Made by a program: the position numbers and the translations under genes
Part shown: positions 3,106 through 58,739 of the stretch, one piece after another
Layout: each line of letters begins with the position of its first letter
How positions within the stretch are numbered: the stretch's first letter is position 1
The notes under the pieces: model-generated
Seen by the model: the letters and a program-made list of their open reading frames with translations, nothing else
Told to the model about the DNA's origin: nothing
Database searches by the model: none
Origin: Candidatus Bathyarchaeia archaeon
GTDB taxonomy: Archaea > Thermoproteota > Bathyarchaeia > Bathyarchaeales > Bathycorpusculaceae
Assembly (NCBI GenBank): GCA_049521795.1
Contig: JBEKOM010000002.1
Location: 1 to 64,000, forward strand
Length of the DNA: 64,000 bases
Direction of reading: 5' to 3'

Positions 3106-3473
3106 ATTCAAACGATAGGGCGCGCATGGTTGTTCCCAAATTGGCTAAAAATGGTTTTTATTCTTCTTGTGGAGTTTGGGACATTTTCAGGTATCGTGCA
3201 TGTCCATGCGTTTTATGACAAGTAGCTCTTCTCGAAAGCGTGCGCGTCAATTTCTGCTCACCTTCCAAGCATGCGCGGTTCTCATCGCAGATCTGTGCAT
3301 TATGTCACGGGTGTCTATCCAAGCCCAAACGTTATCGAACAAGTTCATGTCAATTTCCCGAATTTAGCAACACGCTAGCGCGCTTTGTCTAGGCGATTGT
3401 TGCTGTTACTTGTAAAAAGGTAAAAGAATTAGAAAACACTATAATTTGCATCAAACAGCTTGTAAGTGTCAGT

Positions 3474-5806: not shown

Positions 5807-5892
5807 GCTTAGCGCGCGCGCTACGGGTTCAAGTCCCAACCAAAACCGAAATAGGGTGGAGCCGCTCGGCCCCGAACCAAAATGCGCGCGCG

Positions 5893-6102
5893 AAGCAAGT
5901 TCCGATTGCCTCTCCAAGGGAGGTTGCCTTAGGATATGTTATTGGCTTCTTAGAGGCGTATTCTTTTGGAATAATCTCTTCCGCGGAAAAGAGACCTCTT
6001 ACAGAACACGAACAAACAATGGAAAGCAACCAACTTCGAGGGACGATAAAGAGAAGACTGCCTGAAATTCTGGCAAACATTGTAACAATATTTGGCAAAT
6101 AA
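5893..6102 (+). pseudogene. Start-less 3' gene fragment (hypothetical protein tail)
   Basis: KQVPIASPREVALGYVIGFLEAYSFG...IKRRLPEILANIVTIFGK* begins right after the CG run 5884-5892; no in-frame start nearby. Confidence 0.55.
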
Positions 6103-6169
6103 ATCTGTAAAACTAAGCTTGTGCGCGCGCGCTAAAGTGTTTGTATAACGGACAGTCACGAAGCCGCCC

Positions 6170-6288
6170 GGACTTAGACCCAAATAGGTTCGAGTCCACT
6201 GCTTCAAACATCCTGTAACCAGCATTCTCTTTGTCTTAGGCCAACTGGTTCAGAGCTGCCCGTCCCCATACCCAAATGGGTTCAGAAC
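6170..6288. repeat. Pair of ~28-bp imperfect palindromes (T-arm-like family)
   Basis: GGACTTAGACCCAAATAGGTTCGAGTCC (6170-6197) and CCCCATACCCAAATGGGTTCAGAAC (6264-6288); inverted homologs of copies at 9611, 11746 and 11839. Confidence 0.7.
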
Positions 6289-6339
6289 CTATTTGTAAAA
6301 CGGCGATCGATCGGCGCGCGCTAGAACTATAAGCCTACT

Positions 6340-9114: not shown

Positions 9115-9506
9115 GTTTGGGGGGTAGTTTTATCCCAAAGACAATTATTTCTTACCTTTCAAATGTTTTGCAGGAAGCGAAACCTGCTTTTTCTGTTTTC
9201 TTTTAAGTTCTTTCTCTCGTTGCGATTTCTTATGTTGCTCTAAACCTGCAGCTTTCTTTTCTCTTCTTGACAAAACCTCATCAACCTTAATTGGCAATAG
9301 AAGCGTTACGCATTCTAAAGCGTTGTCCTTTTGTCTGTACCACAAGGACGTATACTCGATTAGCGCGCGCTCTGTGTGTGTTATATGTACTTGTTATGTG
9401 TGCTTGTTGTGTGTGAAGAGAGTAAGTAAGTATAGTAGAGTAAATTAGAGTGTCGTAGTCGTAGAGTTTGGGTTTGGGTTTGGGGGGTAAAGTTTTATCC
9501 CAGACA
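9115..9506. repeat. ~29-bp hairpin-forming direct repeat, two copies (partial third at 12477)
   Basis: GTTTGGGGGGTAGTTTTATCCCAAAGACA (9115-9142), GTTTGGGGGGTAAAGTTTTATCCCAGACA (9478-9506), GGTAAAGTCTTATCCCGCACAC (12477-12498). Confidence 0.7.
9145..9273 (-). CDS. 42-aa Lys/Arg-rich microprotein
   Basis: TTG start after GATGAGG; MSRREKKAAGLEQHKKSQREKELKRKQKKQVSLPAKHLKGKK. Confidence 0.5.
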   Translation of the reverse strand: MSRREKKAAGLEQHKKSQREKELKRKQKKQVSLPAKHLKGKK

Positions 9507-9610
9507 CTAGACCCTTGACTCAACCATTTCCATGACTTCCAAGTGTCTTGAGTTCTCGAGTTGGACTATCTGCTTAGCGCGCGCCGCCTAGTTTTGATCG
9601 CGCGGTTGCT

Positions 9611-9640
9611 GGACTTGAACCCGTTTGGGTTCTAATCCCT
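9611..9640. repeat. T-arm-like palindrome copy
   Basis: GGACTTGAACCCGTTTGGGTTCTAATCCCT, near-identical to 11747-11776. Confidence 0.75.
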
Positions 9641-9869
9641 AGAGGCCAATCCCTGAAACGGTGCGAATCCTCATAGTTCTGCTTTTATTTCGCATGCGCG
9701 AAATGTCGCGCGCGCGAGCGCTATGTTGAGATGACAGAAATCTTAAGTCTGCACGTTCATATTTTGATTTGGATGTAATAGCGGTTTATCGCCACGGCGG
9801 GCGTGCTCTTTCTCCGCGCGCGCCTCTTTTAAGGGTTCATGATATTTCTACATGTTCCTTTCTGTTACG

Positions 9870-10010
9870 TTAGCGCGCGCGGTTGGTGCGATTCTCAACG
9901 ACGTCCTGACGGTAAAAGTAGCGTTGTTTACCATTCCATGGCGGAGACTCAGCGATAAAAAGAACACTCACTTCATCTGGTTTCCACGTTTTCTCAACAT
10001 CAAACCTCAC
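9870..10010 (-). pseudogene. 5' fragment of a uracil-DNA glycosylase-like superfamily gene
   Basis: WKPDEVSVLFIAESPPWNGKQRYFY motif, then the frame is terminated by CGCGCGCGCTAA at 9870-9881. Confidence 0.6.
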
Positions 10011-10269
10011 GTAAGCTTTCTCAGAAGCGTTAAGCCTATCGGAACTTGCCAGACCCTCATCTATGCAGCGCGCGCGAGATGTCTCCATTGGGCTGGATTC
10101 AATTCCCAGCGACCATATTAAAACCCATGTCTGCTTGTAGTCCTAGACGAAAAAGCACGGGTCATGCGAAAGCGGGCGCTACCATCCCGCTAGCTGGCAA
10201 TTTCTTGAAAGGACGCAGGGTTACATAAGGGATAAATTGGACCACGATTCTGAATAGTTCGGAAGAAGC

Positions 10270-15766: not shown

Positions 15767-17005
15767 GTGATAGCTATGCAGGTTCAAAAGCTGTTCGATG
15801 AAATCGAAAAACTGCAAAGTGAGATGGTACAGGCTTTAATGGAGCTTGTTCGTATTCCAGCTATAGCTCCTGAAAACGGCGGAGAAGGAGAATCTGAGAA
15901 AGCCGAAAAACTCGTTGAAATCTTGAAGGCTGCAGGCCTCGACAAAATAGAACGTTGCGACGCGGAAGACGAAAGAGTTCCATCCAAGAAGAGGCCCAAT
16001 ATCATTGCACGCTGCACGGGGGAGACAACAAAGGAAACGCTTTGGATAATCACACACCTCGACATAGTTCCACCGGGGGAGGATTCACTTTGGACCATTA
16101 CAAAACCATTTCAACCCATCATCAAAGACGGAAAAATCTACGGAAGAAGCAGCGAAGACAACACGCAATCAATGGTTTCCTCCATCTTCGCAATAAAAGC
16201 TCTAAAGAACTTGGGAATCAAACCGAGAAGGACAGTTGCTCTCTGCTTCGTGGCTGACGAGGAGCAGGGAAGCACTTATGGAATCCAGCACCTCATAAAA
16301 CAGGACTTCTTCAAAAAAGAGGATCTGATAATCGTTCCAGACGGAGGAAACGCTATTGGAAGCTTCGTGGAGATCGCTGAAAAAAGTGCTCTCTGGTTTA
16401 GAGTGCGCACCGTTGGCAGGCAGACTCACGCTAGCAGACCGGGAGACGGCCTCAACGCCCACCGAGTTGGAATGGAATATGCCTTGGCACTTGACAAAAT
16501 GCTGCATGAGAAGTATGCGGCGAAAGACGAGCATTTCGACCCTCCCGAAAGCACGTTTGAGCCGACGAAGAAGGACAAGAATGTTGATGCTGTAAACATC
16601 GTTCCCGGCGAAGACGTAAACTATTTCGACTGCAGGATTCTACCTCACTACAGTGTGGAAGAAATATTGTCGAACATCAATGGACTTGCACTAGAGTATC
16701 AACAGAAAACTGGAGCTAAAATCAGCGTTGAGTTGGTTCAGAAAAGCGTCGCTCCGAAGCCAACCGATGTGAACGCAAAGATTGTTCTCATGCTGAAAGA
16801 GGCTATCAAGAGTGTGAGACGAGTAGAACCGAAAGTTGGAGGAATCGGAGGGGGAACGTGCGCTGCTTTCTTCAGAAGAATCGACATCCCAGCAGTTGTG
16901 TGGAGCACCGTGGATGAGATGGCACACCAACCGAACGAATACGCAAAAATAGCAAACCTCGTTAACGATGCCAAAATCTTCGCTTCCTTGGCGATCAGGT
17001 CCTAG
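15767..17005 (+). CDS. M20 family metallohydrolase (DapE/ArgE-like)
   Basis: THLDIVP, GRSSEDN, DEEQGS, THASRP, MAHQPNE. Confidence 0.92.
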   Translation: MIAMQVQKLFDEIEKLQSEMVQALMELVRIPAIAPENGGEGESEKAEKLVEILKAAGLDKIERCDAEDERVPSKKRPNIIARCTGETTKETLWIITHLDIVPPGEDSLWTITKPFQPIIKDGKIYGRSSEDNTQSMVSSIFAIKALKNLGIKPRRTVALCFVADEEQGSTYGIQHLIKQDFFKKEDLIIVPDGGNAIGSFVEIAEKSALWFRVRTVGRQTHASRPGDGLNAHRVGMEYALALDKMLHEKYAAKDEHFDPPESTFEPTKKDKNVDAVNIVPGEDVNYFDCRILPHYSVEEILSNINGLALEYQQKTGAKISVELVQKSVAPKPTDVNAKIVLMLKEAIKSVRRVEPKVGGIGGGTCAAFFRRIDIPAVVWSTVDEMAHQPNEYAKIANLVNDAKIFASLAIRS

Positions 17006-17058
17006 GTAGAGCGCAGCTATTTTCCAAGACCTGAACGACGAAGTTTGGGGTCGTGCTA

Positions 17059-17259
17059 GCGTGTTCCTGAATTCTTTTAGGAAGTAGCTTACTGCTCATT
17101 TTGCTGTTCAGTCATATTTGGGTCATATAGTGAACCCGGGGGGGAGGGTGTGAGCACGCAAGCACCCAGTCCGAACCGTGACAGTAACCATCGACCATCG
17201 GAAAACCCCATGCCTGCCTCTTGAGCTGAATCTAGGAATTTAGGAACAAGCATGCGCGC
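17059..17259. mobile_element. ~200-bp dispersed element with terminal inverted repeats (MITE-like or structured ncRNA), copy 1
   Basis: Alignable end to end with 56765-56959; ends TGTTCCTGAATTC / GAATCTAGGAA...; right end abuts GCGCGCTAA. Confidence 0.65.
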
Positions 17260-17351
17260 TAAATCTTCCAGCAATCGTTCGCAAGCTTTGAGAGGAAAAG
17301 TACTTAAATAATGTCGGCACGAAACTAGATTCCTCGAATCGAGGCTGTCTT

Positions 17352-55692: not shown

Positions 55693-56676
55693 ATGCTAAG
55701 AAGGATTCGCGTCGTTCCGTTGGCCGCCGAGAGTCTCGGAGTGAGGTCCATGTGCACGTACGTTGAGACGCCTGACACGCGAATTCTCTTAGACGCTGGC
55801 GTTTCACTGTGTCCAAACCGTTTCGGCCTCCCTCCTCATCCCAAAGAGTTCAGAGCAATAGTTGAGAGTCGCAGAAGAATCGCCCGAGCCGCAGAGAAGG
55901 CTGAGGTCGTCACCATAAGTCACTACCATTATGACCACCACACGCCTTCCTTCGAGGACTGGCTGGTCAACTGGACAGACGCCGGTGAGACTGCCAGACA
56001 GATCTACGAAAACAAGACTCTTCTGATAAAGAATCCTCGAGAACAAATCAACTACAGCCAACGAGAGAGAGCTTGGATGTTCAGCAAGACAGGCGGCAAG
56101 TATGCAAAGAAGATCGAAAATGCAGATGGAAAAACCTTCACGTTTGGCGCCACGAGCGTGAAGTTCTCCGAACCGGTTTTCCACGGACCTGAAAACTCGG
56201 AGCTAGGATGGGTGCTGATGACAACGATCACATCGCAGGATGAGAAGTTCCTCTTAGCTCCAGACGTCCAAGGACCGATGTACGCTCGCACGCTCCAAAC
56301 GATCATCGATGAAAACCCTCAGCTGCTGATGATCGGAGGGCCACCGCTCTACCTTTCTCCGTTGAAGGTTGGCCAAAATGAAATTCAAAATGGTCTCAGA
56401 AACCTGGGGGAAATCGCGAGAAAAATCCCAAACGTTATCCTTGACCATCATGTTCTGCGAGACGAAAACTGGCAACAAAGCACGATCAACATATTCTACG
56501 ATGGTTACAGGTCAGGATCCACCATCCTGACAGCAGCCGAATTCTTGGGCAAAAAGAATGTTTTGCTTGAAGCTTCAAGGAAGCGACTCTTCAACGAAAA
56601 CCCGCCGCCCAAAGAGTTTGAAACCTGGATGAAAGCCAACGATGAGACCAGGAAGCATACGAAGCCGCCCATCTGA
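55693..56676 (+). CDS. MBL-fold metallohydrolase (UPF0282-like)
   Basis: AESLGVRS, ISHYHYDH, DVQGP, LDHH. Confidence 0.9.
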   Translation: MLRRIRVVPLAAESLGVRSMCTYVETPDTRILLDAGVSLCPNRFGLPPHPKEFRAIVESRRRIARAAEKAEVVTISHYHYDHHTPSFEDWLVNWTDAGETARQIYENKTLLIKNPREQINYSQRERAWMFSKTGGKYAKKIENADGKTFTFGATSVKFSEPVFHGPENSELGWVLMTTITSQDEKFLLAPDVQGPMYARTLQTIIDENPQLLMIGGPPLYLSPLKVGQNEIQNGLRNLGEIARKIPNVILDHHVLRDENWQQSTINIFYDGYRSGSTILTAAEFLGKKNVLLEASRKRLFNENPPPKEFETWMKANDETRKHTKPPI

Positions 56677-56764
56677 AGAGTTCGAGGTCGCTGAACTTCC
56701 GTCCTCAAATGCCTTCTAAGCGTCAGCGGAGGCCATGCTGATATCTTTGCGGATTAGCGCGCAG

Positions 56765-56959
56765 GCGTGTTCCTGAATTCTTTCGGGAGGCAGCTTGTGC
56801 TGCTCATCTGCTCTTCAACCATATTTGGATCATATAGGATACCCGGGGGGGAGGGCGTGAGAGCAAGAAAGCACCCAGCTTGAACCGTAAACAGTAACCA
56901 TCGTCCATCGGAAAACGCCACACCAGCCTCTTCAACGGAATCTAGGAACAAACATGCGC
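56765..56959. mobile_element. ~200-bp dispersed element with terminal inverted repeats, copy 2
   Basis: Homolog of 17059-17259, same orientation; ends TGTTCCTGAATTC / GAATCTAGGAACA; left end abuts TTAGCGCGC. Confidence 0.65.
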
Positions 56960-57308
56960 CTTACCCAGAACCCTTTTTGGAAACTCATCTGACAAAGGTT
57001 GATAGTTAAAATCCTCTTGCAACAAGTTACCAGAATCAAAAATCGCAATCACCACAGGGCCCATTCTTAATAGCGTTCTCCCGTCACTCTTCTTTGAGTT
57101 GTCTCTTCTTGTACTTCGTGTATCTTCTTTGATAAGGCATCTCAGCTTTCACGAGAAGAAAAATCGAAACTGTGCATCACCCGCTATGCAACACGAAGAA
57201 CCATCACCCTAAGATGAACCAGAACCTAGAAGAGAACTATAGAAGAAAATAATATCCTACTTTAAGTTGTGCTTTTTCATTATTATTACTGGGAGGAGGC
57301 TTCACATT

Positions 57309-58146: not shown

Positions 58147-58223
58147 TGGGGCCGGGGCCGGGATTTGAACCCGGGCGCTAGGCTCCACAGGCCTATAGGC
58201 TACCAAGCTACCTCACCCCGGCC
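58147..58223 (-). tRNA. tRNA-His(GUG) with encoded G-1 and CCA
   Basis: G-GCCGGGG acceptor pairs with CCCCGGC-C-CCA; anticodon arm TAGGC-CTGTGGA-GCCTA; T arm CCGGG-TTCAAAT-CCCGG. Confidence 0.97.
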
Positions 58224-58739
58224 GCTTCTTGTTGACTTCTTATGCTTTTCTGGGTGATTCTCGTTCATTTTGGTTTCCTCAAGAATATCAAGTTATCCTT
58301 TCAGCAAACGTATTCAAAGCCCGCCTCAGGCGATTCCTTTGACTCTACTCCTGTTTCGCCTGCCTTACCAGTCAAGTTATCACTTCTAGATCCAAATGAT
58401 GTTCTACCCATGTCTACGTGGTCTCCTGCTTTGAACACCGTATTCCAGAGAAGTCTTTGACTTCTTGAAGGTGCTTCATTTGATAATAATATGGTCTCGC
58501 TTTCAAATATCGCAGAAGCGCGTTGCCCTGTCCCTTTGTTGTGCGTGCGCACTTGAAACAGCCCACACAGCTCCGCATCTAACTTGAACGCCTCACCGTT
58601 TTCAACGATGCTCGTTAAGTGTATAGACAAAACGTATAAGCAAAATGTATAAGCTTTGAAATTATTTTTTTGGCAAATTTTGGACCAAGCCAGCGCGGCT
58701 AAGATAGGCTCAAATTCGGGTTAATGTGCATGTCCAGGC

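Follow-up and report, generated by a model that had tools for sequence, protein, structure and literature searches.

The first 64,000 nucleotides of contig JBEKOM010000002.1 of a Candidatus Bathyarchaeia archaeon (assembly GCA_049521795.1, forward strand; hereafter the window) carry two copies of a short repeated element, here named copy A and copy B. Copy A starts 46-57 bp past the stop of a plus-strand gene (15767-17005) and copy B 81 bp past another plus-strand gene (55693-56676). According to a DNA search of the source genome (G000; 2.44 Mb in 69 contigs, 98.75% complete), the two copies share 82% identity over 180 nt (E 1.3e-42); they have identical orientation and can be aligned end to end, with a mean column identity of 83% when the flanks are included, so that the full-length pair described by eye in an earlier note on this DNA was borne out. 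Both ends of each copy are formed by a 13-bp inverted-repeat core, TGTTCCTRAATTC, as that note had read from their pairing, and the core is common to the ends of a transposase-bearing insertion sequence (IS) found in relatives. The CG motif that the note saw touching each copy is intact at one side only (copy A, GCGCGCTA at 17254-17261; copy B, TTAGCGCGC at 56754-56762) and degenerate at the other. We interpret the pair as members of a family of MITEs (miniature inverted-repeat transposable elements), non-autonomous and moved by an IS5-like transposase, which insert in GCGCGCGC tracts between genes, and we consider this reading to be roughly 85% probable. The parts of the two copies, including the cores of their terminal inverted repeats (TIRs), are listed below; the TIR cores of both copies and the right tract of copy B were read from the sequence.

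17051-17056, no strand: left GC tract of copy A, degenerate (TCGTGC), aligning with the GCGCGC of other family members; the left match of the empty allele in the relative G002 stops at 17048
17057-17253, plus strand: copy A proper, candidate MITE of family 1, 197 bp, from TAGCG... to ...AGCAT (nhmmer E 3.6e-64)
17062-17074, plus strand: left TIR core of copy A, TGTTCCTGAATTC, kept in 37 copies of the family and common to the IS ends
17236-17248, plus strand: right TIR core of copy A, GAATTTAGGAACA
17254-17259, no strand: right GC tract of copy A, GCGCGC, then TA; retained in the empty allele of G002 as TGCGCACGC-TAAACC
56757-56762, no strand: left GC tract of copy B, GCGCGC, after TTA, from the sequence and the family alignment
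56763-56955, plus strand: copy B proper, candidate MITE of family 1, 193 bp (nhmmer E 2e-67)
56768-56780, plus strand: left TIR core of copy B, TGTTCCTGAATTC
56938-56950, plus strand: right TIR core of copy B, GAATCTAGGAACA
56956-56961, no strand: right GC tract of copy B, degenerate (GCGCCT), then TA

A dispersed intergenic family

The earlier note called the element twice-present, which holds for the window and fails for the genome, where about 15 loci were found. The DNA search returned 14 matches with E<=5e-23, and a nhmmer profile built from nine full copies returned 17, of which 14 span more than 150 model positions. The common layout consists of a GC hexamer, 5 bases, the 13-nt core TGTTCCTGAATTC, an interior of about 160 nt, the inverted core GAAT(T/C)TAGGAACA, 5 bases and a second GC hexamer. 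Several of the source-genome loci are truncated and one carries an insertion of about 100 bp; the copy at G000:C2:249500-249821 is split by this insertion after the CATATTTGG block, and a copy split in like manner was observed at G001:1468828-1469155.

In a complete congener (G001, 2,346,764 bp) the same profile gave 34 matches, 25 of them long, and at least 19 family-1 matches are present in G002. Among 41 related genomes, long matches are confined to G000, G001, G002 and G010, all belonging to one genus; six further genomes match the element end only, over 23-32 nt, and 30 genomes outside the genus show no match beyond the end of about 25 nt. An alignment of 37 copies (9 from G000, 21 from G001 and 7 from G002) has a mean pairwise identity of 78% (range 66-93%), and the columns of the TIR core are mostly at least 90% conserved. 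The stretch is present in the 24 DNA runs listed, mostly from peat, soil and sediment metagenomes, with no RNA run among those listed.

Of the 41 long copies found in G000 and G001, a crude gene map puts all but one between genes. Their neighbours form convergent pairs somewhat more often than usual (12/40, compared to about 19% of all intervals), and element orientation relative to the upstream gene is mixed (tail 26, head 14; binomial p about 0.08), a bias that is not convincing. The position of both window copies in the same orientation after a plus-strand gene, to which the earlier note had drawn attention, is correct for this pair; it does not extend to the family and looks coincidental.

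The insertion sequence with the same ends

The earlier note had proposed a search for a longer version containing a transposase. Short matches to the right end of the element in relatives led to such a version, a 1.08-kb IS in congeners. In G004 (contig C204) inverted ends GCGCGCATGCGTGTTCCTAAATT are separated by 1,093 bp and enclose an open reading frame (ORF) of 341 aa, in G009 (C18) the end GCGCGCATGCGTGTTCCTAAATT stands ahead of a 329-aa ORF, and G001:389080-390159 holds a 1,080-bp copy, the ORF of which is split by a frameshift. The IS measures 1,080-1,093 bp between its inverted ends and has one ORF of about 328-341 aa. Over the 27 nt of window positions 17236-17262, identity to the left end of the G004 IS is 96%; when the MITE is compared with the 1.09-kb IS of G004 and the 1.08-kb IS of G001, the termini alone are alike and the interiors are unrelated. 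The same IS ends were found in two other genera (G072 and G043).

The encoded protein matches the Pfam families DDE_Tnp_1 (PF01609; E 2.7e-20 and 7.2e-25, 73.4 and 88.3 bits, cut-off 23) and DUF772 (PF05598; about 41 bits, cut-off 23.1). Its best NCBIfam models are IS1182, with 140.3 bits (cut-off 270), and IS5_4 (NF033581), with 98.9 bits (cut-off 140). More than 1,100 relatives are present in a large protein collection, the best 120 of which have identities of 82-92% and lengths of 319-337 aa, almost always 328 aa; close relatives are named IS5 family transposase by some sources, and many of them lie on contigs of about 1.08 kb, i.e., the IS alone. In G009, G004 and G007 the match extends over practically the entire query and is free of internal stops, and broken copies were found in G001 and G002.

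The G007 match is 44% identical to the first transposase and represents a second subfamily: the transposases at G007:C8 and G085:C2 (44-46% identical to the first) are flanked by ends identical to those of a second short family, family 2, which measures about 180 bp and is represented in G000 by 17 copies that reach 100 nt or more. A further subfamily (G004:C22 and G057:C12), 50% identical to the first, has TGTTGCAAAATT-type ends. The ends of all three IS subfamilies are preceded by GCGCGC, and in G000 at least two short families other than family 1 can be recognised by the pattern GCGCGC-N5-TGTYCCTRAATT.

Around the TIR-only matches in G000 (C13, C10, C3, C7 and C2:277981) no transposase was found nearby, other than a C-terminal remnant at C13:39969-40220. 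Since the assembled source genome holds no intact transposase of this kind, its MITE copies are probably orphans, old and currently immobile; it may also hold an unassembled IS. One of these places is occupied by an element of about 870 bp with the same inverted ends (G000:C2:277981-278845), present at the same site in G001 (524434-525305), which lacks a transposase and contains a 133-134-aa ORF, cupin-like by eye alone. It may represent a non-autonomous element with cargo, or else a host gene that lies between two solo ends.

Insertion sites, GC tracts and their possible re-use

The intergenic DNA near the copies is frequently rearranged or holds other repeats, and mapping of flanks onto the other genome placed 11 of 39 family-1 copies under strict settings and 14 of 33 TIR-bounded elements under looser ones. 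Six sites were comparable as occupied versus empty, among them that of copy A, for which empty sites had been suggested as a check and which was the one locus also compared in metagenome runs, four in number. They are listed with the length of the empty GC tract followed by those of the two occupied flanks.

Site 1, copy-A site: occupied in G000, in G001 and, in run X2, on an identical 847-nt contig; empty in G002:C9 (GGT-TGCGCACGC-TAAACC) and in run X5, where 17048 is joined to 17257 on a 999-nt contig, both lacking 17057-17253; 8 -> 6+6
Site 2, family-2 copy at G000 C10:33807-33946: occupied in G000; empty in G001 (AAC-GCGCGCGC-TAAT); 8 -> 6+6; in outgroups the left flank lies on other contigs
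Site 3, 134-bp element at G001:1936369-1936502: occupied in G001; empty in G002 (AA-CGCGCGC-TCT) and G000 (AA-CGCGC-TCT); 7 -> 5+6 relative to G002
Site 4, G000 C2:171676 / G001:430606: family 2 in G000, family 1 in G001; empty in G002 (TTTTCA-GCGCACGC-AATTT); 8 -> 6+6 in both
Site 5, G000 C1:~534185: occupied in G002 and G010; empty in G000; 10 -> 6+12
Site 6, G000 C2:~286250: occupied in G001; empty in G000, the empty allele having no GC tract

The proposal of the earlier note that the CG motif is the insertion site agrees with the alleles of sites 1 to 4: where empty they show one (GC)4-like tract, and where occupied GCGCGC or nearly so at both sides. At four of the six sites the net gain in GC tract is exactly 4 nt, which we take to mean that the element enters a (GC)4-like target and that 4 bp (GCGC) are duplicated, comparable to the 4-bp duplications of the IS5 group; the right tract of copy A (17254-17259) is accordingly read as target DNA plus part of the duplication. 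A TA beside the tract is frequent and dispensable, being absent at site 3 (GG...TT) and site 4 (CA...AA), which argues against duplication of a TA with GCGCGC inside the repeat.

The note's first suggestion, a non-autonomous mobile element, is upheld by the dispersed copies, the TIRs common with a transposase-bearing IS and the empty alleles in relatives. Under the mechanism proposed here, the MITE, a non-coding sequence of about 195 bp with the 13-bp core and 5 outer bases at each side, would be incapable of moving itself. Its last 27 nt or so match the ends of the 1.08-kb IS, whose single IS5/IS1182-type DDE transposase (328-341 aa) would bind these common ends and cut and paste the MITE in trans, a step suggested by sequence likeness. 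The MITE would enter short alternating GC tracts of about GCGCGCGC, often flanked by TA, and about 4 bp (GCGC) would be duplicated, leaving each copy between two GCGCGC hexamers. Since GC tracts are abundant and almost all located between genes, copies would gather in intergenic DNA in either orientation.

Several observations weigh against this reading. The transposase scores under every curated NCBIfam IS-family cut-off, with IS5 models other than the one given above lower still, and the source genome itself holds only fragments, the Pfam DDE_Tnp_1 search giving two partial matches, one in a 176-aa open frame and one in a 103-aa piece with a stop. The only link between the MITE and this transposase lies in their common ends, from which mobilisation in trans is deduced. 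Sites 5 and 6 deviate from the +4 pattern, and a dinucleotide repeat hides the register of any duplication, so that a 2-bp duplication plus one GC belonging to each element end would look alike. Finally, GCGCGC accompanies the ends of each IS subfamily observed, which would also fit the outermost part of the TIR.

This last point leads to the strongest of the rival explanations, in which the MITE is the same, GCGCGC is its outermost inverted repeat, the target is a TA duplicated as in Tc1/IS630-type elements, and solo (GC)4 tracts are excision footprints. GC tracts and element ends alike are most commonly flanked at both sides by the dinucleotide TA, GCGCGC is retained at both ends of three IS subfamilies with transposases only 44-50% identical, and one empty allele has no GC tract. 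The distribution of the 12-mer TAGCGCGCGCTA points the same way: G000, G001 and G005 contain it 17, 19 and 8 times, whereas G003, G012 and G018 lack it (the reversed control was found 0 times), and it is patchy among the 61 genomes of the family, with at least one occurrence in 23 and four or more in 9. The transposase was matched at E<=1e-20 in 14 of the 61, and four or more 12-mers are found in 5 of these 14 compared to 4 of the 47 without it; as the genomes are kin, this is a hint rather than a test. Against a TA target, several occupied sites lack TA on one or both sides (e.g., G001:1936369 and C2:171676 / G001:430606), and site 4 holds two different families with G002 empty, the simplest account of which is an ancestral empty tract hit twice. 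Furthermore, 570 of 648 intergenic (GC)>=3 tracts do not adjoin repeated DNA, and of the 87 orthologous intergenic tracts that could be mapped between G000 and G001, 66 are equally long in both and only one differs by +4 (a further 4 differ by -2 and 8 by more than 20 nt). On balance, we regard this alternative as unlikely. The related idea of footprint cycling, by which solo tracts would differ by multiples of 4, was not supported by the same 87 tracts.

The tracts themselves are strikingly numerous: GCGCGCGC occurs 417 times in G000 compared to 29.5 expected from base composition, whereas the palindromic GC-rich hexamers used for comparison are at or under expectation. Of 389 tracts with n>=4, 83% fall outside the crude gene map, which covers 82% of the genome, and several solo tracts of G000 correspond in G001 to other insertions of 1.2-1.8 kb flanked by GCGCGC. 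Within the window, clusters of tracts were observed at 5812-6321 (4 tracts) and 9363-10076 (6 tracts). The elements may exploit tracts that belong to the host, or may have given rise to them.

A given tract can be occupied by different families, as at site 4. Five sites have a family-1 copy in both G000 and G001, and at the four of these represented in the alignment the same-site copies are mostly not nearest relatives. At the copy-A site the partner ranks 32 of 36 in both directions, with 73% identity, compared to 85-86% identity of copy A to copies elsewhere in G002 and G001. In AU tests on a maximum-likelihood tree of the 37 copies, built from short sequences and with most branches weak, a single clade was rejected for copy A and its G001 site-mate (p 0.023) and for the three copies of the C1:547k site (p 0.03), and was not rejected for the other two same-site pairs (p 0.235 and 0.312). 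Taken from sequence comparison, these results are suggestive of repeated independent use of the same tracts, or of gene conversion between copies.

A broader reading, which we put forward tentatively and with more doubt than confidence, is that some Bathyarchaeia possess a coupled landing-pad system, in which at least three transposase subfamilies (44-50% identical) and their MITEs would use only intergenic (GC)4 tracts, re-using pads that the elements themselves make or lengthen, each insertion adding GCGC. It is favoured by the tract with two families and an empty genome, by the rejection of a single clade at two of four sites, and by the tract being commoner in genomes with the transposase. 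It is opposed by the stability of tract lengths between G000 and G001, which show no +/-4 pattern, and by the fact that most tracts have no adjoining repeat.

The interior, further elements and known systems

As its alternative to a mobile element, the earlier note had offered a new structured non-coding RNA (ncRNA), the inverted ends of which would be the closing stem. Such genes would fit the intergenic position of the copies and the conservation of the middle CATATTTGG.TCATATAGGATACCCGGGGGGGAGGG: the blocks named in the note are present in both window copies and near-invariant across the 37 family members, scoring 0.92 per 10-nt window compared to 0.89-0.94 for the ends, in an overall range of 0.82-0.94 with one variable window of 0.71. 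However, Rfam gave no match at E<=10 in 16950-17350, and at the gathering score a tRNA was its only match in the whole window. The RNAalifold consensus of the 37 copies is weak (plus strand -8.13 kcal/mol, minus strand -7.09; covariation term -0.6) and dominated by TIR pairing, 8 of the 22 predicted pairs joining the two ends and 2 of the 22 being compensatory. When copies at the same site were compared across genomes, the central block had changed at 49 of 228 positions and the arms at 181 of 743 (Fisher p 0.42), so that no host constraint on the central block was found in this comparison; as it changes as fast as the arms, the family-wide conservation reflects descent from master copies rather than selection in place. 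Together with the presence or absence of the element at given sites between close genomes and its mixed orientation to neighbouring genes (26:14), these results render an ncRNA very unlikely.

A small protein encoded on the minus strand, with the motifs FSDGRWLL and LTPSPPG, would account for the stop-free minus-strand frames present in both window copies (17089-17274, 61 aa; 56754-56951, 65 aa) and has a negligible probability, in line with the note's own leaning to non-coding: the frame is not kept among the 37 copies, the longest stop-free frame being a minus-strand one in 22 and a plus-strand one in 15, the spacing of the two conserved blocks falling into the three classes modulo 3 in 10, 7 and 6 of the 23 measurable copies, and indels of 1, 2, 4 and 8 nt being frequent. 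The note's comparison with IS110/IS1111, by which a DEDD transposase would place the element in a repeat, draws on the analogy of insertion in a repeated motif and can be set aside with near certainty, given the clear TIRs (13-bp core plus common outer bases), the net gain of 4 nt, the DDE_Tnp_1 encoded by the IS with the same ends and the finding of no DEDD_Tnp_IS110 match (PF01548) in G000 by a Pfam search that was positive in 6 of 14 control genomes.

Two further short elements with the same kind of ends lie in the window.

58518-58698, no strand: family-2 candidate MITE copy, 181 bp, with paired inverted ends of the TGTCCC type (GCGCGY-N5-TGTCCCTTTATT / TGTCCCTAAATT) and an interior unrelated to family 1
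3120-3383, no strand: third short element, 264 bp, with ends GCGCGC-N5-TGTTCCCAAATT / GCGCGC-N5-TGTTGCTAAATT

The family-2 copy contains a GCATATAC-type word twice and is situated about 300 bp from the tRNA matched by Rfam (58156-58217, minus strand, 37.5 bits), which covers model positions 6-65 of 71, its acceptor-stem ends falling outside the Rfam alignment. Short elements related to the one at 3120-3383 were observed at G000:C13:15426-15682 and C3:203439-203913. In addition, a repeat of about 200 bp at G000:C1:74775-74994 and some ten other places (including C1:546650, C1:315678, C1:741164, C9:9720 and C12:50119) has TAGCGCGCGCTA at both sides and no TGTTCC core, which suggests still more families on the same tracts.

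MITEs are known among archaea from Sulfolobus, Methanocaldococcus and haloarchaea. Like the IS-derived MITEs of prokaryotes, family 1 is short, non-coding and intergenic, with IS-matching TIRs, dispersed copies, an apparent flanking duplication and presence/absence variation. It differs from simple IS deletion derivatives, since its interior is unrelated to the IS, and from other prokaryotic MITEs in that its insertion appears restricted to (GC)n tracts. MITEs are described in general terms in PMC11602168 and PMC10969869. A literature search found no report joining Bathyarchaeota with miniature inverted-repeat transposable elements; the portions of the surveys PMC13343696 and PMC11602168 that were consulted do not mention Bathyarchaeia, although their supplementary lists could contain these elements, and the titles and abstracts examined described no such targeting of GCGCGC by an IS.

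With respect to its enzyme, the partner IS resembles the IS5 family in its size of about 1.08 kb, its single ORF of about 328 aa with DUF772 and DDE_Tnp_1, its TIRs of about 17-25 bp and its apparent 4-bp palindromic duplication. Members of the IS5 group are about 1.2 kb long, encode one DDE transposase and duplicate 4 bp of a short palindrome such as CTAG/YTAR. In contrast, the partner IS would duplicate GCGC in a longer (GC)4 context and scores below the NCBIfam cut-offs for both IS5 and IS1182. Other IS are known to target repeated palindromes, namely IS1397 and ISKpn1 in REP/BIME units and IS621 and other IS110 members in REP. Family 1 likewise enters a short, abundant, intergenic palindromic motif and stays out of genes; its enzyme, however, is not of the IS110 type, and about 8 bp of simple GC alternation serve as its target instead of a structured REP hairpin. 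In kind, family 1 is an ordinary MITE and a new family; what is unusual is its apparent restriction to (GC)4 and the abundance of these tracts.

The MITE reading would explain a repeated intergenic sequence in uncultured, widespread Bathyarchaeia of peat and soil, and would allow a candidate ncRNA or small-protein gene to be dropped from annotation. Closely related genomes differ in which elements they carry, and the elements are thus well suited to tracing the history of strains and species in metagenomes. More generally, plain (GC)4 tracts seem to be what this family of DDE transposons recognises, the same ones apparently being used again in different lineages. If this is confirmed, it would be a simple natural case in which an IS5-like enzyme directs insertion to safe sites. 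The finding also gives a starting point for explaining the hundreds of intergenic GCGCGCGC tracts in these genomes; if the landing-pad system proved true, these would amount to hundreds of safe intergenic docking sites.

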